Below the pieces are notes generated by a model that saw only the letters and a list, made by a program, of their open reading frames with translations, did not search any database and was not told where the DNA came from. From the NCBI RefSeq assembly GCF_006345805.1, contig NW_021832447.1, positions 1 to 31,134 on the forward strand: a stretch of DNA of 31,134 bases. The letters are read 5' to 3'. The stretch's first letter is position 1, and every line of letters begins with the position of its first letter. The position numbers were made by a program, and so were the translations under genes. The DNA comes from Octopus sinensis (lineage: Eukaryota). Below, piece by piece: positions 2,924 to 24,456 of the stretch.

Positions 2924-3233
2924 CAATGAAGAAAATGCTGACAAAATAATTTAAGTAAGGGAGAGTGTATTTAGTTAGGTGAAAGTTCTTTACCGGTTGC
3001 GCATTTGTTATGCTTATCAAAAGATATATTTTAAAGAGAGATAGAGTTCCTTTCTGATAGATTTTTTTCTCTTATCAGATAAGAGAAAAAAATCTATCAG
3101 AAAGGAAGTCTATCTCTCTTAAAAATATATCTTTTGATAAGCATAACAAATGCGCAACCGGTAAAGAACTTTCACCTAACTAAATACACTCTCCCTTACT
3201 TAAATTATTTTGTCAGCATTTTCTTCATTTCCT
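2921..3233. repeat. Near-perfect palindrome (156-bp arms, 1-nt centre at 3077), probably a fold-back Penelope-like terminal fragment
   Basis: 2921-3076 is the reverse complement of 3078-3233 with about 3 mismatches; the centre is CTTATC-A-GATAAG. The right side runs on uniquely to ~3276, and (TA)n lies on both sides. Confidence 0.95.
3130..3167 (+). ncRNA. Degenerate type I minimal hammerhead ribozyme (mirror copy at 2987-3024, minus)
   Basis: TCTT-[TTGATAA]-GCAT-AACAA-ATGC-[GCAA]-CCGG-TA-AAGA. Stem I TCTT/AAGA, stem II GCAT/ATGC, palindromic stem III ACCGGT, GUA triplet. Three core substitutions versus CUGAUGA/GAAA. Confidence 0.65.
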
Positions 3234-3317: not shown

Positions 3318-3361
3318 GCTATTTATGTATATATAAGTATATGTCTATATATATAAACATA

Positions 3362-3872
3362 GTCAATTGGCACTTGATTTATCGACCCCGAAATGATGAC
3401 AGGCAAAGTCGACCTCGATGGAATTTCAATTAAAAACGTAGCGACGGGCGACATACCTATTTCTTTACTACCCACAAGGGGATAAGCACAGAGGGGACAA
3501 ACAAGGACAGACACACGGATTAAATCGATTGTATCGACCCCAGTGCGTAATCGGTACTTATTTAATCGACCCCGAAAGGATGAAAGGCAAAGTCGAGCTC
3601 GGCGGAATTTGAAGTCAGAAAGTACCGGCAGACGAAATACCTATTTCTTTACTACCCACAAGGGGCTAAACACAGAGGGGACAAACAAGGACAGACAAAC
3701 GGATTAAGTCGATAACATCAAACCTAGTGCGTAACTGGTACTTATTTAATCGAGCCCGAAAGGATGAAATACAAAGTCGACCTCGGCGGAATTTTAACTC
3801 AGAACGTAACGGCCGACGAAATACCGCAAAGCATTTCGCCCGGCGTGCTAACGTTTCTGCCAGCTCGCCGCC
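3362..3872 (-). mobile_element. SINE family B trimer (one tRNA head + 184-bp tandem bodies)
   Basis: Minus-strand head GGCGGCGAGCTGGCAGAAACGTTAGC (A-box-like), GAGTT(C/A)AAATTCC (B-box-like) and central GCCTTTCATCCTTTCGGGGTCGAT domain (resembles the MetaSINE central domain as I recall it). Junction motif at ~3450-3457 (diverged), 3634-3641 and 3818-3825. Confidence 0.9.
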
Positions 3873-5539
3873 TTGTAAACATCAATAATACTAACCTGAA
3901 GATCACAATGCCAAAACAACGTATATTCTGTGACGTGTGCGTGTCTGTACGTATGCGTGTATATGCGTTTGCGAGTATGTATAGGTAAATTTGCTGTGTG
4001 TCACATGCGTGTTTATTACTCTGTACGATTTTCAAGTGTGAATTAAGTAATATTGTAATTTAATTCGAGCCTTGTGCGTTTTATTATTCGTCTGAATTGA
4101 GGTGTCATGGATATTAAATTAGAATTCTGCAATTAATCATGTTTAATAACAGTATATATATATTTTTTCTTGGGTAAAAAAATTCGAACAACATTTCTTT
4201 AAAAAAATATATAAGGTTAATATAATTATTCATAATTGATTTATAAATTCATACTATGAAAACTATACAGATAATTCAATTAGATTTGTACTACACCGTA
4301 CTAGGAAACTGAATACAGTCTCATAGTTTTAATTTATTTCATTTTTTAACTTATATAGAACTCGACACTTCTGTCTCAATTTCTATATAATTTTGCAATG
4401 TTTACAAAGTTTTCAAAAGTATTAAAAATACTTTAATTATGTTTCTCATCATGTTTGGTTCTTGTTTACTTTTCTTTTGCTAATAATTACCATTTCGTCA
4501 AAGACGTTAATATATCGGGTCTTATAAATTTAATCTGTCGACAAAAAAATTACAAAAATGTGGTAAATATTGTAAGGATAGTGTTTAAATGTACAACATA
4601 TTTTCTTCATATTTTACTAACAGATTTAATGAAAAAGTAATGGCTTTCCAGTGAACGGTGACAAATTTTTTTGGTTCACTTCATTTGATAAAAATAAAAG
4701 CAACATCTACTAAATAACACATCCTAATGAATCAGAATAAGCGAACATTACATTAGATATCATAGTGATATGATATTACTAATGATTTTAAAATCGCATG
4801 GAAGTTGATGCTCGAAATGCATATTCTTTTTTTTCATAGATATAGTCGTTAAAGACTACTACAGTGTCGGAAGAATATGAACCATTGTATTTATGGATTT
4901 CTACTTTTGCTTTAAGTTTATGCATACCGAAAAGCACACAAGGAGATATGCACATCGTTTAATTTCGATTCTAGAGATTATCTAATGTTTCTTATTCTAA
5001 GTCAAACCTAATTGCCTTTGACTTGTGTGTAACTTGCTCATTCCATGGGAATGAAGATTGCTTCAATAAATCGTGAATTTTCTATCACACATACCTTTAT
5101 TCACCTGCGTTCGTCCATACCACTATGTTATTCTCTTAGCTTTTATTTTTGCTACATGTATCATATAAGTGTGTTGTGTGTGTATGTGTGTTTATGTGTA
5201 AGTCTAGGTGTCCACGTATAACTTCGTCATGCGTAGGTCTCTTATAAAAGAAAATTTTCCAAAATTTGTGAATAAGTGAAAACATGATCTCGTATTATGT
5301 TTTACAGTGATATTTAGGCAACTGCGTAATGACCAATGCTCTCCGAAATAATAATAATGCTGATAGTGGAACAGACAAATAATATACGTCAACTCATTTT
5401 CATCGCAGATAGACATGGATTCCTAAAAACATTTTCTTTCCTCTAACTAGATATTTCGGCAAGTGCCTTCCGCTAGAGCCTCGGGCTGACCAAAGCATTG
5501 TGAGTGCGATTAGTAGGTGGAAACTCAAAAAACCTGTAG

Positions 5540-5577
<38 letters not shown>

Positions 5578-5578
<1 letters not shown>

Positions 5579-6065
5579 AATTGATCAAAATAAAATAAAA
5601 TAACATGATGCGAAGGATTCAGCGGTACATATGTTTCGGGCCTTTATTAGACAGATTTATAACAATGCATAATGTATGTCTGTGGCTTCTTCAGCCGCGC
5701 ACAACAGCTTCCACAAGGACATGTGTTACATCAAAAATTCTTGGTTGGGGATGCAAATCCTCTCATTCACGTACGACATAATGCGGCAGCAGCATAGAGT
5801 TGAAGCGTCCATCTCTTTCTTCTCTCAATGTAGAATGAGGAAAATTGGATGTTGAGGTAATGTAAATAAATAAATACATATATAGAGGTGAAGATGGAGG
5901 GGCGAGAGTTCGGGACGAGGGATAAAAAAATGTATAAAAAGTGTAAGTATAGAATAATATAAAAATGTAGAGGATAAAGGGTTGTAAGTAGATGTAAAGG
6001 GGGTATAAAGAAATATAAAGTAAAAATAGAAATAGAAATAAAAGTAAAAAAACCTGATAAAAACA
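5578..6065 (-). mobile_element. Non-coding Penelope-like terminal-repeat / retrozyme-like insert carrying a hammerhead
   Basis: ~490 bp flanked on both sides by (TA)n. On the minus strand it has a pyrimidine-rich 5' part, then a hammerhead about 45 nt from the 3' end, then a TTATTTTATTTT tail. Confidence 0.7.
5622..5698 (-). ncRNA. Type I minimal hammerhead ribozyme
   Basis: Minus strand: GCGG-CTGAAGA-AGCC-(ACAGA...TCTGT extension)-GGCCC-GAAA-C-ATAT-G-TA-CCGC. Intact CUGANGA and GAAA, palindromic stem III ACATATGT, GUA cleavage triplet, stem I GCGG/CCGC. The base of stem II is imperfect. Confidence 0.8.
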
Positions 6066-7359
6066 TATATATATATATATACACATACATACATACGTGT
6101 GTGTTGTGTGTGTGTGTGCAGATGTTTGCGTGTCTGTGTTCATCTACCTACTACCGCTTGTGAACCGATGTTGGTATGTTTACATCCCGGTAAATTAGCA
6201 GTTCAGCAAAAGAGACTGATCGAATAAGTAAGAGGCAGGCAGAGAACAAGTCCCGGGGTCGATTTGTTCGACTAAAGGTGGTGCTCCAGCATAGCCGCAG
6301 GCAAATGACTGAAACAAATACAAGAATGAAAGAATGAATTTGACGAGATTAGCCTAAGAAAAATATGCCTTAGAAAAGCACGAATGCCGGCGTATAATGC
6401 ATAAGGTTTGCTTAATCGATTTTATTCAAGGTTTTTTCTCCTCCTTCTTTACCAGTCTTCAAATTTACTAAACAAACTGTCACTCAGGAGCATCCGACTG
6501 TCTTTGTAAATCAACAAATATAATCTGTAATTCACGTTCATAGTAAAGACATCGTTAGTTGTCCTAATATTCGAGACATTTCACTTAAATTACTCATTAA
6601 ATGAAATTACTAAAAAGTACAGCGTGCAAAATTTCTTTTGGTGAACTTGCACACGACATAATCACATAAGATGTTATTAAAAGTTACTTTTATAAGATTT
6701 TATTATGTATTTGTAGACGTTAAATTTTGTTTATTTAGTTTAGCAACAGCAGCTGTTTGTTTCTAGTTAGGGGAAATATAATGTTGTTTTTAGGAGTCTA
6801 TGTGCATCTCTTATGATAAATCTACGATAAAAATGAGTTAACGTATATTATTTGTCTGTTTAACTGTCAGCTATTTTGGAGTGCATTGGTCATTAAGCAG
6901 TTAATTGATATAATAATTGCTGAGAAAATCTCCATAAATAATGACATATGTTAAATGTAGTAATTATTAAACATATGGAGGGTAATTCCAACATATCCCG
7001 ATAAGGTGTACGTATTTCATTTCGTATACAGCTGTTCGATTTTCATGTGCATCACTATATTTATATCACAATGCAACGACTTCGCAAATACCCAAAATTT
7101 TTATTGCTTTCTGTTTTCTGCATTTAGGGTAATATATCTTCATGTATTTTTAATGTTTGTTCTATGAATTTTCTTTATCATTCTTTTTTATTAGTAAGAT
7201 TTATCTTCCGTATTTTATCGGCTTTTCAATTAATATTCGTTATAAAACATGAAAGACATTGCTTTTTAGTACCACTTTCTATCATATTCAATACTATACA
7301 GATGTCTTATTTCACACCAGCTCTTTCCTGCTTGAGGTTATATCCTACTGGTGTTTATA

Positions 7360-7970
7360 AAGCAAATCGGAAACTAAGTAGTGAGGATGATTTCATCAAC
7401 AGCACACGTTCCATTCCGTGCATCGAGGTAGTAAATTGTGATTGGAAGGACCACGTTACCAGTGAAGAGGTTCTGTTCTGGGCTAGACTGACCGGCATTG
7501 AAGCTACCATGGCAGGGCACCGCCTCCACTGGTCGTGACACTTCATACGTATGCTTTGAAGGCGCCTCCTCTGTTAGGTTCTCAGTCACCAGACCGCGCG
7601 AGACCACCAAATTCTGTTTCCGAGACCAGCTCAAGCGACTCCTCTCTTCTGCTCTGTTGACCCAAATACCTGAGAGAAAATTGCCAAGGACCGCCCAAAG
7701 TGGAGATATATCATCGTAAAGGGAACGAAGCAGATGGAAAACAACGTACGTCAACTGTCTGAGATCAGACGTCGAAGAGACAAATAGCCACTCGCTCCTA
7801 CTCGTCCTCCGCCAACTCTTACTTGTGATTAATTTCCCCAGCTTTTCTATAGTACCTTTGGCCCGAAGAGCCACTTCAGGCACTGGCACCGTCCACACTC
7901 CTCTGGATGAAGACGCTCAACCTTTCGTTACACATTAACTATTCGTATGCGAGGTAATGACAACGACGTC
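7360..7970 (+). mobile_element. 5'-truncated RTE-clade (BovB-like) LINE 3' end, pseudogenised
   Basis: Translated across frameshifts: WKDHVTSEEVLFWARLTGIEATMAGHRLHWS*HFIRM ... KFCFRDQLKRLL ... *EKIAKDRPKWRYIIVKGTKQMENNVRQLSEIRRRRDK ... TCD..FYSTFGPKSHFRH. This fits the RTE post-RT motifs W.D.V.N.EVL, LRW.GH..RM, R..D.LK, WE..A.DR..WR and a terminal C2H2-like motif. Confidence 0.85.
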
Positions 7971-7974
7971 GACA

Positions 7975-8071
7975 ATTTGTTGACCCTTCTTTATTCTGTC
8001 TTCAAATTCCACTGCATTCATCGTTGCCTTTCACCCTTTCGTAATCAATAAATAAAAGTACTGTGATCGAC
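7975..8071 (+). mobile_element. Diverged SINE-B fragment directly after the LINE
   Basis: TTCTGTCTTCAAATTCC...TTGCCTTTCACCCTTTCG...AATAAAAGTACTGTGATCGA aligns to the SINE-B body. Confidence 0.7.
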
Positions 8072-8319
8072 TTCATCGAATAACACCACACACATGAAAT
8101 GTGGATGATATTATGCATATGTTAAAAATCACTTTACTGACCAATACCCAGGAGATGATAAGCAGATTCCACTCAGTCGAGAATAAGATCCCTTGAAAAT
8201 TTGATTACATGATGGGAAAACTACCAAAGGTCAATTTAGTTATTCTTTATTCCAGTGACCATAAAATTATTGCGAAGCTAGTGGAGATGAAAATCTTCTG
8301 CAATATTCTCTCAAGAAAA

Positions 8320-8515
8320 AGGCAGCGGGCTGGCAGAAACGTTAGCACGCCGGGCGAAATTTCTTAGTGGTATTTCGTTTGTCTTTGCATTCTGAGTTCA
8401 AATTCTTCTCATCCTTTCGTGGTCAATGAATTAACTATCAGTTGCGTACTGGGGTCGATCAAATTGACTGGACCCTCCCCCAAAATTTCGGGCCTTGCGC
8501 CCAGAGTAGAAAAGA
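8320..8515 (+). mobile_element. SINE family B, near full length, tail type 1
   Basis: AGGCAGCGGGCTGGCAGAAACGTTAGCACGCCGGGCGAAAT...GAGTTCAAATT...CATCCTTTCGTGGTC...CCCCCAAAATTTCGGGCCTTGCGCCCAGAGTAGAAAAG. Confidence 0.9.
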
Positions 8516-9689
8516 ATATTCCCTCAAGAATGCGTCGTATTGGGCCGTTATGACGAAAATGTGAATGTTTCTACAACGGAGGATAACGTGTGTTTGTATT
8601 TAAGTAATTAATCCATGATTCTAAGTGGAAGTAAGGATGTAAACTATGATTTATAAGTGGCTACAGAATGAAGATATATAAAGGTATGAAATTCATCAGA
8701 GCAAAGAAGACACCAATAAAATGACGGTTGCTTTAAACTACTTGATAAGTTATGTTTGTTGTCTAATAACGATCGAATGTATTCCCGAAGGATTTCTATT
8801 TAACGAAGTCTTCTTACATGGAATCCATTGATGTAATTCCGTCGTAGAATATATTGTTTAATGTGTTACTTAGTTGTATCTAACCTAGAATACCGCAATT
8901 ACGATGTGAGCGTCGTAACTGCGAGGCCACGTCTATTCAAATATATTTACATCAGAGAAGAAGCGTTTGCTGCACAATTAAATAGAGTGTCACTGCTCAG
9001 GGACTTATCCTGATGTAATTAATTGTTTGTTTGTTATTTTTCCTACTAAATCTCTGGTTATCTCCCTGCTCTCTATAAGAGATGTCGTCCGAACAAACCA
9101 TGCTGAATACTGAGGGTATGGAATAAAGAATTTATTGTCCTTATACATTCAGTATATTTTGACTATATCCGTTCTTGATATTATATTGCCACATAATTTT
9201 TCTTGCCATTGGTTGCTGAAATGTTCCTGGGTTTCGGTAAAAGAAATTTCAGGAGGCCATATAATTGTGATTTTATGCAGCATATTCTGCATCAAGATGC
9301 ACACATTTAGTACAGTGATTCTTCAGTTTTTTTCTAAGTAAAAGAACCTGAAAAATAGGACCTCCAATCAGGGCTTTCTCGATACCTAATCTAAGTCAGG
9401 AACCTTTCAGCTTCTCTTTGTACATTTTTCTTCTCATGTCATCGTGCCATTCGTTTTGTTTCGTATAAACCTTGTAATATAGTTTCTTTTTTCTAAACGT
9501 TTATCCGAATTTTGGGGTCATTTTTTTCTCTACTTGATACAGGGTAACACTTTCTCTGTATTTTTGTTTTCTTTTCATTGTCCTTGCTTTATGATATTTG
9601 TCTGTTTTTCTTCTTTTTTGGTTTGCAATTTTATATATATATTTTTAAATAAACATTAGTGTTATCAGAACTCGACCAAAATTAATAAC

Positions 9690-12772: not shown

Positions 12773-13135
12773 AATACAAAATGAAAATATATCTTCATAG
12801 TATAACATATACTGTATCGTTAATTGGAAAACTGGTGGTAAATACTATTGTTAATGTTCTACACTCGTATACACAGACCCATACATATACACACACATTC
12901 TCTCTCTCTCACACAGACACACGCACACATACTTTCTCCCTATTTCTCACACTCTCACATACACATACATGCACACGTATGATTGATATTATTAAATGAA
13001 TCACAATATGTTATATATATTCATATATTTCAATGTATGTATACACATAAATAGTATATTTTACAATTACACATCTTAGCATAGTGGATAGTGCATATAT
13101 GTTCAGTAGATATTTGTGTATATATATATACATAC

Positions 13136-13187
<52 letters not shown>

Positions 13188-13761
13188 GTGTGTGTATGTG
13201 TGTGTGTGTGGTGTGTGTGTGTGTGTGTGTGAGTGAGTTAATGTATGTTTGCGTTTGTTGTATGTGTGTGTATGTGAATTTGTGTGGGTAGATATAGCAA
13301 GCTGTCTCCTCTTCAAGGACATCTGATAATAGCAGTACTCCTAATCCATATGAAGATGTCATATTTGCGTAAGGTATGCATAAGTGTTGAAAATACTGGA
13401 AAATACGAAAATGAAAATATATCTTCATAGTATAACATATACTGTATCGTTAATTGGAAAACTGGTGGTAAATACTATTGTTAATGTTCTACACTCGTAT
13501 ACACAGACCCATACATATACACACACATTCTCTCTCTCTCACACAGACACACGCACACATACTTTCTCCCTATTTCTCACACTCTCACATACACATACAT
13601 GCACACGTATGATTGGTATTATTAAATGAATCACAATATGTTATATATATTCATATATTTCAATGTATGTATACACATAAATAGTATATTTTACAATTAC
13701 ACATCTTAACATAGTGGATAGTGCATATATGTTCAGTAGATATTTGTGTATATATACATAC

Positions 13762-17344: not shown

Positions 17345-17507
17345 CTTAAATATTCTTTTCACGCTAAGCTAAAGGCCCGAAATTTTAGGGGAAGTGGGGC
17401 GAGTTGATCAGATCGACCCTAGTACGCAAATGGTGCTTAATTTATCGACCCAAAAGTATGAAAGGTAAAGTCGACCTCGGCGGAATTTGAACTCAGAACA
17501 TAGCAGA
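17345..17507 (-). mobile_element. SINE family B, head-truncated, tail type 1
   Basis: AAGGCCCGAAATTTTAGGGG...ATCGACCCTAGTACGCAAATGGTGCTTAATTTATCGACCC...AAAGTCGACCTCGGCGGAATTTGAACTCAGAAC. Confidence 0.85.
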
Positions 17508-18395: not shown

Positions 18396-18404
18396 AAAAT
18401 AATA

Positions 18405-18799
18405 CTCTCTAATACAGGCACAAGGCTTGAAATATTGGGGGAGTGTTTAATTCAATTATATCGACCACAGTAGACAACTGGTACTTAAATAATCGACCCC
18501 GAAATGACGAAAGGTTAAGTCGACTTCGGCAGAATTGGCACTCAGAACGTAGCAACTAGTGAAATACCTATTTCTTTACTACCCACAAGGGGCTAAACAC
18601 AGAAGGGACAAACAAGGACAGACAAACGGATTAAGTCGATTATATCGACCCCAGTGCGTAACTGGTGCTTATTTAATCGACCCTGAAAGGATGAAAGGCA
18701 AAGTTGACCTCGGCGGAATTTGAACTCAGAATGTAGCGGCCGACGAAATACCGCTAAGCATTTCGCCCGGCGTGCTAATGGTTCGGCCAGCTCACCGCC
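18405..18799 (-). mobile_element. SINE family B dimer (head + tail-type-2 body fused to a tail-type-1 body)
   Basis: GAAATACC at 18561-18568 and 18745-18752 (184-bp period). The downstream unit ends in the AAGGCTTGAAATATTGGGGG-type tail. Confidence 0.9.
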
Positions 18800-18927
18800 T
18801 TATCAAAGAGACGTTAAAATAATGAGAGCATACAGTGTGAGACACAGGGAAATGTTTGAAGAAATAAAGCAAGTAATATTTGCGTGTGTGTGTGTGTATG
18901 TGTGTGTGTGTTTGTGTGTGCGTGCAT

Positions 18928-19664: not shown

Positions 19665-19862
19665 TTTACCGCGAAATCCTTAGCGGTATTTCGCCAGCCA
19701 TTACATTTTGAGTTCAAATTCCGCCGAGGTCAACTTTGCCTTTCTTCCATTAAATAAGCACCATTTACGGACTAGGGTTGATGTAATCGACGTAATCCCT
19801 TTATCTGCCCTTGTTTGTCTCCTCTATATTTAGCTCCCACCCACGTGGGCAATAAATAGGTA
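19665..19862 (+). mobile_element. SINE family B, tail type 2, monomer
   Basis: GCGAAATCCTTAGCGGTATTTCG...GAGTTCAAATTCCGCCGAGGTCAACTTTGCCTTT...CCTTGTTTGTCTCCTCTATATTTAGC...GTGGGCAATAAATAGGTA. Confidence 0.85.
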
Positions 19863-20089: not shown

Positions 20090-20287
20090 TTTACTCTTTT
20101 ACTTGTTTCAGTCATTAAACTGTGGCCATGCTGGAGCACCGCCTTTAGTCGAGCAACTCGACCCCAGGACTTATTTTTGTAAGCCTTATTCTATCAGTCT
20201 CTTTTGCAGAACCGCTAATTTAGGGTGACGTAAACACAACAGCATCGGATGCCAAGCGATGTTGGGGAGACAAACACAGACACACAA

Positions 20288-20332
<45 letters not shown>

Positions 20333-20498
20333 ATATATAAAATATACGACGGGCTTCTTTCAGTTTTCGTCTACGAAATTCACTCTCAAGGCTTTGGTCG
20401 ATTCGAGGCTATATTTGAAGGCACTTGCCCGAAATGCAACGCAGTAGGACTGAATCCGGAAACATTTAGTTGGTAAACAAGCTACTTACCACACAGCC
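20090..20498 (-). mobile_element. SINE family A, full length, uninterrupted
   Basis: Minus strand: GGCTGTGTGGTAAGTAGCTTG...GGATTCAGTCC...CGGGCAAGTGCCTT...(TA)n...GGCGGTGCTCCAGCATGGCCACAGT...GACTGAAACAAGTAAAAGAGTAA. Confidence 0.9.
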
Positions 20499-22737: not shown

Positions 22738-24456
22738 CTGCTACAGATACGCATAGATCTATCTATTTATTTGTCTATCTATCGATCGATCGATCTATTT
22801 ATCTACCTACCTACCTCCCTACCTGCATACCTACATACCTACATATATGCATACAAGAATACTTTGAATGTTATGCGGTTTTTTTTCTCTTGTGTGACTT
22901 GGTAAGAAGAGCAGGGTCATTAGATATAAAATAAGTGTTTTAGTGTTTGGATGCGAGCAGGAATTTTGTAGAGGACAGTTGGGTGAATTTTGAAGTTGAT
23001 GCCAACATCATTTAGGCAACGATATCGGAATATTTTCCACAAAAAGGACACAAAACCTGCTGAATTAAGAATAACCATATTTATTAGAATAGCGAAAGGC
23101 ATTTAGGTGACAGAAAACTGCCGCCACTAAAATGCAGTGCCGTCTTTTCTAGGTCACATATATGTAACGTTTATTTTGAATGATATCTTGTAAGATATAA
23201 CACCCTTCTTCTCATAATTCCCCGAGTCAGTATTATATTTCCTTTCCTGCAGCATTAATTTGGGATGTTAAATAACATGTCCCCTTTACTTTGAATAAAA
23301 TAAAAACAGGGTAAAAATAATTATGGACATAGACAGTTCCACTTACAGGAGTCTCAGTTAACAAAAAGACAATTAAAACAGTAAAGAATGGAAAGAAAAT
23401 ACGCGATTAAGAACATCTATATTTCCCACGTTTGGAACAACGGGCTGGCATTAGGTAATTTCTAAACTTTTCAAACAAAAACTATAATTAAATTGCTACT
23501 ATTTTTCGCAGGAATTTAATATGAGAGTTTATAACTGTCTAATTATATTGCAATACCTTTCTGCATTTCAGATATTTCCATCTAATCAATTGTATGAATT
23601 TTTATGACCAGATGCGCATATTGCTGTATCATGTTTCGTTCTCATTAGTGCGAGGCAATAAAACATGTATCAATTATACTGCAATCTTGCGGATCTCCAC
23701 TCTCTGAAGTTATTCATTACAGCTAAGCATGGTGTAGTCATAGAAACAATATCGTAACAAATAAATGCGCATATGTAATGACAATATGCAAATAATCATC
23801 GACCAATTCCTTTGAAATCTGAAGGACCCCGAGCAATCACTGCGGCCCTTTTTTCTATGCTGGAAGAAAATCCCCATGTTGAGATCGATTTGGAAAGTAT
23901 GGCGATATCCTAATATTAATTTCAAATTTGGGCACAAGGCCAGAAATTTAGGTGGAGTGGATATGTCGGTTATATCGCATCAAGTGCTCGGCTGTTACTT
24001 ATTATATCGACTCTCGAAAAGATGAAAAACAAAGTCGACCCCGGCGGCGTTTGAACTCGGAACATAAAATCGAGGAAAGTGCTGCTAAGCATTTTTCCCA
24101 GCGTGTTAACAATCTTCCAGCTGACTGACTTAACGTTCTAATATTATGTATTGAAAACGTATTATATTCGAGCAAAACTATGTTGATATTATTTCTTTAG
24201 CAAGCATTAACATATGCAACTGATGATGAACATGTGTGTTTGATTTCATATATATATATATATGGATAGATAAACAGACAGACACAGACAAATAGATAGC
24301 TAGGTATGTACGTATGTATGCATGCATGTATGTATGCATATATGTATGTATGTAGGTAGGTAGGGAGGTAGTTAGATAAATAACTCGTTCGATCGATCGA
24401 TCGATAGACAAAGAGACAAATAGTTAGATAGATAGATCTGTGTGTATCTGTAGCAG
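22738..24456. repeat. Pair of ~120-bp inverted arms (22738-22855 and 24331-24456)
   Basis: CTGCTACAGATACGCATAGATCTATCTAT...ATCGATCGATCG...CTACCTCCCTACCT...CATATATGCATACA occurs in reverse complement at 24331-24456, ending GTATCTGTAGCAG. Confidence 0.8.
23930..24132 (-). mobile_element. SINE family B, diverged full length, tail type 1
   Basis: GGCACAAGGCCAGAAATTTAGG...AAAGTCGACCCCGGCGGCGTTTGAACTCGGAAC...GCTAAGCATTTTCCCAGCGTGTTAAC...CCAGCT. Confidence 0.85.

Follow-up and report, generated by a model that had tools for sequence, protein, structure and literature searches.

The Hydra clade of C-terminal EN+ Penelope-like elements (PLEs) was defined by Craig et al. 2021 (PMC8557442). Hydra elements have a single ORF, RT followed by GIY-YIG, and their definition comprises DKT, CxCX5C, absence of CCHH, CxxC and CxH motifs flanking conserved E and N, and RWK, with GxKF/Y not conserved. 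They carry a type I hammerhead near the 3' end and target (TA)n, and the function of hammerheads in these elements is called unclear. Most Hydra families are <3 kb (those listed are ~1-3 kb), their hammerheads have loops of 3-10 nt on 3-7-bp stems (supplement File S2), and their tail measures 30-40 nt.

Three other systems bear comparison. The minimal type I hammerheads of metazoan PLEs (Cervera and De la Pena 2014, PMC4209133) have a short helix I, a helix II of 7-8 bp opened by an unpaired or mismatched base, a small palindromic helix III and a predicted dimer, and occur mostly in single truncated copies or opposite-strand pairs; motifs of this type were found to have low activity, as dimers only. 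The Poseidon element PAc of Anolis (Frangieh et al. 2024, PMC11167929) uses, as demonstrated in vitro, two internal start sites, which bound its tail and lie inside the ORF; its targets are AT-rich, and its hammerhead, located upstream of the start sites, is protein-assisted and dispensable in vitro, with no ends at the cut. Finally, non-LTR retrozymes (bioRxiv 10.64898/2026.07.22.740005) are tandem short hammerhead units without an ORF, whose type I hammerhead is related to that of PLE terminal repeats.

The locus studied here lies in a 31,134-nt stretch of the Octopus sinensis genome, which we call the window. Its insert (5577-6066 when microhomology is counted in) is very probably the 3' end, truncated on its 5' side, of a Penelope-like retrotransposon that is young, autonomous and bears Hydra-clade motifs; it was likely inserted into (TA)n by the family's own endonuclease and RT, and the place of that tract in an old SINE is likely due to chance (Table 1). 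Like non-LTR retrozymes, the window copy is non-coding, but it represents a single fragment, truncated, of an element that is autonomous.

Table 1. Insert, hammerhead and host sequences in the window (positions are those of the window)
Feature	Position	Strand	Basis or remark
Hydra-type Penelope-like element, 5'-truncated 3' end (pseudo-LTR)	5577..6066	-	ends ambiguous by 1-3 nt (AT/TA microhomology)
Short tail of window copy	5577..5625	-	ends +44 to +48 past the cut (family numbering), where the family has its short end site
Type I hammerhead motif: 4-bp stem I, 50-nt domain II (family: 51 nt), 2-bp stem III	5622..5698	-	sequence, folding
Stem I strands GCGG and CCGC	5698-5695 and 5625-5622	-	
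Core CTGAAGA; domain II (50 nt); GAAA	5694-5688; 5687-5638; 5637-5634	-	
8-nt palindrome ACATATGT forming stem III	5627..5634	-	predicted pairing between two molecules
Predicted self-cleavage site, after GUA, between 5626 and 5625	5625..5626	-	sequence against the hammerhead consensus of PMC4209133
(TA)n target tract, element's 3' end	5540..5578	.	20 copies of TA
(TA)n/(CATA)n/(TG)n remainder of target microsatellite, truncated 5' end	6065..6122	.	
Head-side half of older host SINE-like repeat, outer 63 nt missing	5453..5541	+	75% to window 20345-20435
Tail-side half of host SINE-like repeat	6123..6325	+	78% to window 20095-20290
SINE-like repeat, unsplit reference copy	20090..20498	-	strand from tRNA-promoter-like boxes, by eye

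Several lines of evidence connect the insert to complete elements. Compared with the 3' repeat of the ORF-bearing copy L064, it is identical at 485 of 491 positions and differs by short indels only, without a single substitution. A genome search with 5583-6066 yielded 1,456 first-look candidates, and all 40 scored matches are 99-100% identical over 482-484 nt. In 28 of the 29 other best-matching loci that were fetched, the shared sequence extends upstream past the point where the window copy breaks, and walking upstream from the insert leads through ~2 kb of non-coding repeat to the end of a GIY-YIG-like ORF and then to RT. Because of this continuation into ORF-bearing copies and of the match to the 3' end of L064, the insert is best described as a 5'-truncated end and not as a separate unit. 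The window locus itself is ordinary, being one among >1,000 truncated ends.

An earlier note, made from the window alone, had interpreted the insert as a separate non-coding unit of ~490 bp that resembles a retrozyme, is processed by its own hammerhead and uses the microsatellite of a SINE as its target. Such a unit would fit a window copy which carries no element ORF and splits a SINE, as well as locus L026, the only one of the 29 to break at most 2 nt from the window's 5' point. However, 5' truncation points in position-sampled loci are spread from ~80 to ~1,900 nt upstream of the cut, no short direct tandem arrays occur among the first 100 matches, no scored 3' end lies at the cut, and the reading is largely refuted by the contiguous ORF-bearing copies, in which the supposed unit terminates a 2-kb 3' repeat that follows an 836-aa ORF. 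We consider it highly improbable.

The split SINE described in the earlier note was confirmed, with one correction. Both halves of the reference repeat do flank the insert, but the left one aligns over only 91 of the 154 nt of the head-side half (75%) and lacks its outer end, while the right one aligns at 78%. We presume the repeat to be a SINE from tRNA-promoter-like boxes read by eye. The window contains other repeats: a second abundant one, built of 184-bp tandem units and present at six or more sites (3360-3874, 8319-8520, 17349-17505, 18398-18801, 19671-19837, and 23912-24122), a direct duplication at 12773-13114 and 13402-13744 (99% identical, possibly recent or an assembly artefact), a 79-bp direct repeat at 1159-1237 and 7979-8057 (96% identical, 6.8 kb apart, with the insert in between), and, at 3043-3111, a hairpin formed by a near-perfect inverted repeat of 31 bp around a short loop. 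A short open frame at 7128-7538 ends in what resembles a decayed LINE RT C-terminus. Part of the stretch is present in 19 of the 22 sequencing runs listed, which fall under four organism codes and include no RNA run; the four runs examined consist of contigs, with no joints and no end pile-ups, and are silent on expression, cleavage and introns.

Complete units measure 4.4-4.7 kb and comprise a leader of ~200 nt, the 836-aa ORF and a 3' region of 1.7-1.9 kb (about 2 kb) ending in the hammerhead. The cut site lies 196-203 nt before the ATG (L077, L066) and 1,947 nt after the stop (L064), and, measured from cut to cut, the unit spans 4,440 nt in L066, whereas adding up the parts gives ~4,650 nt for the main subfamily. 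Pseudo-LTRs, partial tandems, an inverted 5'-truncated arm and a tail at one end are all present in the family. Adjoining the element in L066 is a 442-aa open frame (L066:7726-9054), which resembles a LINE-type reverse transcriptase in its motifs.

The open RT-endonuclease ORF, P0001 (L066:2301-4811), gave no RT match in Pfam, where its endonuclease piece produced a weak GIY-YIG match only (E 0.066), and a PDB sequence search found nothing. Its predicted structure (mean pLDDT 79.6) has telomerase RT (TERT) as top PDB fold match (E 1.3e-8), with a TM-score of only 0.31. Argonauta is the one organism named among the homologues. P0001 carries DKT at 126-128 (a modified DKG), YRDD, a CxCx5C linker at 696-704 before the endonuclease, a GIY-YIG core (VIY..YIG, 715-732) devoid of the inner cysteine pair (CCHH absent), CxxC at 793 and CxH at 823; RWA at 39-41 aligns with RWK/RWR of homologues, and GxKF/Y is absent. 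Two N/T-rich inserts (residues 487-549 and 629-693), predicted to be disordered, recall the asparagine-rich inserts of rotifer Penelope ORFs (PMC3846280).

On these motifs, and with reference proteins compared by eye only, P0001 fits the Hydra clade as defined in PMC8557442, sharing with it the single ORF with RT then GIY-YIG, DKT, CxCx5C, CxxC and CxH, the lack of CCHH, the type I hammerhead near the 3' end and the (TA)n target. Neptune was also considered and dropped: Neptune and Nematis likewise have a C-terminal GIY-YIG, a cysteine linker and a (TA)n bias, but their CX2-5CxxC linker and CCHH motif are absent from P0001. The inverted pairs described below led us to consider a DNA transposon with terminal inverted repeats as well, a candidate dropped on account of variable arm lengths and an ORF that encodes an RT-endonuclease. 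Compared with the listed Hydra families, the element is longer, with its 1.7-1.9-kb 3' region and two N/T-rich ORF inserts, and has RWA for RWK; its hammerhead has a 51-nt domain II, and its tail is about 75 nt. The N-terminal part of Hydra-1_Obim, from Octopus bimaculoides, shares its motif order with P0001 by eye, but Hydra-1_Obim is 2,507 bp long and has another hammerhead (PMC8557442), which makes the present 4.4-4.7-kb element another family. Judged by these motifs, the element is a new family of the known Hydra-type PLE kind, with a variant hammerhead.

Related sequences occur in the same genome. A sister family (L099, L120-L149; 1,518 first-look candidates, possibly including the main family) shows 79% protein identity; its basal stem II has 7 bp, and its ends fall into the two clusters seen in the main family. 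In addition, L094:1019-1840 contains a related ORF with 83% protein identity over residues 1-275, and the 330 bases upstream of it have no match to the family 3' repeat. Searches of the openly accessible literature found no description of this Hydra-type family, no account of long-armed octopod hammerheads and no strict two-end rule of the kind presented below.

In the similarity-ranked sample, 42 of the 44 scored 3' ends meet (TA)n, as do 48 of the 58 ends in a position-ordered sample under a strict match (40 loci on contig C1, 2 of them dropped with ends unresolved), nearly all others meeting AT-rich or compound repeats by eye. The earlier note's proposal of a ribozyme-bearing Penelope-like retroelement lying in (TA)n, with such repeats on both sides of the insert, is correct. 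Its idea of a SINE microsatellite serving as landing pad is not: a SINE lies beside 4 of the 44 ends in the similarity-ranked sample, window included, and beside 4 of 38 loci in the position-ordered one, versus 10 of 74 background TA tracts drawn from 20 arbitrary 10-kb stretches (Fisher p=0.77, with samples small enough to be compatible with a mild bias). By hand count, the sister family lies beside the SINE in 6 of 23 insertions, nominally above background, which would favor a SINE-aimed unit and leaves room for a mild bias. We conclude that the main family targets (TA)n in general, not the SINE, which looks like a passive carrier of TA tracts.

The hammerhead in the window was confirmed on the minus strand at 5698-5622, with the core, 4-bp stem I, palindromic stem III and predicted cut at 5626/5625 that the earlier note had recognized; the ACAGA...TCTGT extension of its long stem II is present in the predicted fold of domain II. 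Rfam detected no hammerhead at E<=1 anywhere in the window, nor at E<=10 in 5400-6300. A simple descriptor finds a single site in the window and produced any match in only 2 of 300 windows simulated with a second-order Markov model. The type I core CUGANGA...GAAA...UH and three stems are present in both window and family, and core and stem ends are identical in 46 of 57 distinct family copies (4 are truncated inside the motif, and 6 have other single changes).

The window copy is one G short in stem II compared with the family form, and is the only one of these 57 copies to lack it; genome-wide, there are 16 exact matches to the window form and 1,171 to the family form. Its own minimum-energy fold is not a hammerhead, the hammerhead fold lying 3.3 kcal/mol above the minimum, and unconstrained folding of 5615-5705 is unremarkable (z=0.41). 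For the family sequence, the computed minimum-energy fold is the hammerhead, and two co-folded copies form a hammerhead dimer in which stem III is intermolecular and 8 bp long, as in the predicted dimers of PMC4209133. Thus, for want of the stem II G, the window copy is predicted to form the hammerhead less readily than the family sequence does. As the short form recurs on unrelated backgrounds, it would represent a sporadic mutation or an assembly error; a subfamily was considered and rejected for this reason and because, in the pair L182, just one of the arms has the variant. Inspection by eye for a pseudoknot joining loop II to the 3' flank revealed none that is kept between subfamilies. 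Self-cutting of the family hammerhead is predicted from its sequence.

Such long-armed hammerheads are widespread. With an unchanged stem III and a spacer (domain II) of 46-75 nt, the core pattern has 6,674 matches in the genome versus 17 for the reversed control, while a 15-45-nt spacer gives 345 matches versus 6; standard descriptors may thus undercount such ribozymes, the longer form outnumbering the shorter one 6,674 to 345. Forty loci (L190-L229), chosen for diversity from the first 100 listed, together with four family loci, provided 55 motifs in 18 clusters. The motifs fall into at least 18 sequence clusters with an identical palindromic stem III, many being in inverted pairs. Across the 18 clusters, stem I is paired at 82% versus 47% after shuffling and stem II at 82% versus 49% (0 of 10,000 shuffles, kinship uncorrected), and slid controls give 33-58% and 29-54%. 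In contrast to the 7-8-bp helix II of PMC4209133, domain II spans 46-75 nt and contains internal loops, and no more than 5 of the 18 clusters retain the G10.1-C11.1 pair. A related ORF piece is located upstream on the same strand in 7 of the 40 loci, the others being unlinked within 4 kb; the assignment of all 6,674 motifs to PLEs is thus tentative.

These counts bear on whether the family hammerhead is a relic that has lost its catalytic activity and persists solely as a structure for protein binding or dimerisation. The first (basal) stem II position, an A-C mismatch in the family and A-A in a neighbouring cluster, is paired in only 67% of clusters, and no copy ends at the cut, as expected of a relic. 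However, a first position that does not pair, for example U-U, is frequent among published Hydra hammerheads too (PMC8557442 File S2); the pattern recurs thousands of times with both catalytic boxes in place, far above its reversed control; and the hammerhead is the minimum-energy fold of the family. Loss of catalysis appears rather unlikely to us.

Where copies end is informative about the template. Their 3' ends cluster at +29-48 and +117-129 past the predicted cut, and of the 44 and 58 ends scored in the two samples, which share one locus, none lies at the cut, the closest being 8-9 nt before it. The 5' ends of ORF-bearing copies are scattered around the cut, 1 of 30 loci starting 3 nt before it. 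Three ORF-bearing copies (L072, L080 and L082, a small sample) have a 5' break 51-57 nt past the cut, just beyond the short end site. With no 3' ends at the cut and scattered 5' ends, the 3' hammerhead of the template was likely uncut or had been religated, and the description of the insert as ribozyme-processed finds no support in these ends. PAc similarly has its hammerhead upstream of the start sites and AT-rich targets, but its start sites lie inside the ORF, instead of in the 5' leader as here.

The religated form of this template would be a circular or multimeric RNA generated by hammerhead cleavage and ligation, as in a model proposed in PMC4209133, with the ribozyme essential in vivo and copies crossing the religated site. 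Accordingly arranged copies exist: in 10 of 30 ORF-start loci the 3' repeat, running >30 nt upstream of the cut, directly precedes the ORF, and L065/L066 and L073/L075 are direct tandems. Conservation of core and stems across the 18 clusters also agrees with an essential ribozyme. Yet an uncut tandem or read-through transcript would yield equal DNA structures, catalytic mutants still inserted in the one PLE tested in vitro (PMC11167929), and the family has its A-C mismatch at the base of stem II. An obligatory circular or multimeric template is possible but seems doubtful to us.

Many insertions consist of two arms. Among the first 100 matches, 64 form 32 inverted pairs, all with tails outward, one direct repeat has a 4.4-kb spacing, and 34 are singles. 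All 27 measured pairs, as well as the 5 pairs uncovered among supposed singles, have one short and one long end, so that the rule holds in 32 of 32 two-armed insertions (L230-L249, L031-L033, L064, L067, L069, L012, L024, L250, L252-L254, and L266; the duplicated locus L235, also discordant in the position-ordered sample, is left out). In the sister family, 5 of 6 pairs are short plus long; the exception, L149, has two short ends and is flanked on either side by the same SINE half, so that it probably arose later through an inverted duplication. That the tail is found on one arm only was known qualitatively (PMC3846280; PMC8557442 figure legend). For PAc, no strand difference in start site was seen (PMC11167929), whereas the two arms of the present element always use different sites.

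Arms of a pair differ from each other by 1.5% and from other copies by 3.9%. Their lengths are within 20% in 17 of 27 pairs (permutation mean 3.4), a figure somewhat inflated by arms having been set equal where the alignment bridged the centre, although separate estimates agree within ~25%. Near-identical arms of similar length would be expected if cDNA started from the long site snapped back and copied itself, the short end being where the copy joined or was cut, and self-priming has been proposed for PLE palindromes (PMC3846280). Fold-back predicts, however, that the long tail is always on the longer arm, which was seen in only 6 of 11 asymmetric pairs, and single copies end at the short site too (10 of 15). 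We therefore find fold-back improbable, and favor paired priming at two sites in one complex, which the positions of the ends suggest.

Under paired priming, the GIY-YIG domain would nick (TA)n, and RT would prime at one of two internal sites on an RNA that is uncut at its 3' hammerhead. The window copy would have started at the short site and halted after ~490 nt; in two-armed copies, one target strand would be primed at the short site and the other at the long site, both in a single complex. The hammerhead is likely slow, cutting as a dimer or with the help of protein, and may trim multimeric or read-through transcripts but not the inserted end. We tentatively suggest, as a proposal that has a real chance of being right yet stands somewhat below even, a fixed two-site rule: a dimeric RT-endonuclease would cut both (TA)n strands and copy one RNA, or a hammerhead-linked RNA pair, twice, always once from each of two start sites ~75 nt apart, both copies often stopping together, while the long-armed hammerhead (~6,700 copies in many families) would act as a scaffold setting up the asymmetric complex.

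A strict rule of one short and one long end makes the known remark on one-end tails a testable prediction, and this young, abundant Hydra-type family with its open ORF can be used to test PLE integration and the role of the hammerhead in it.
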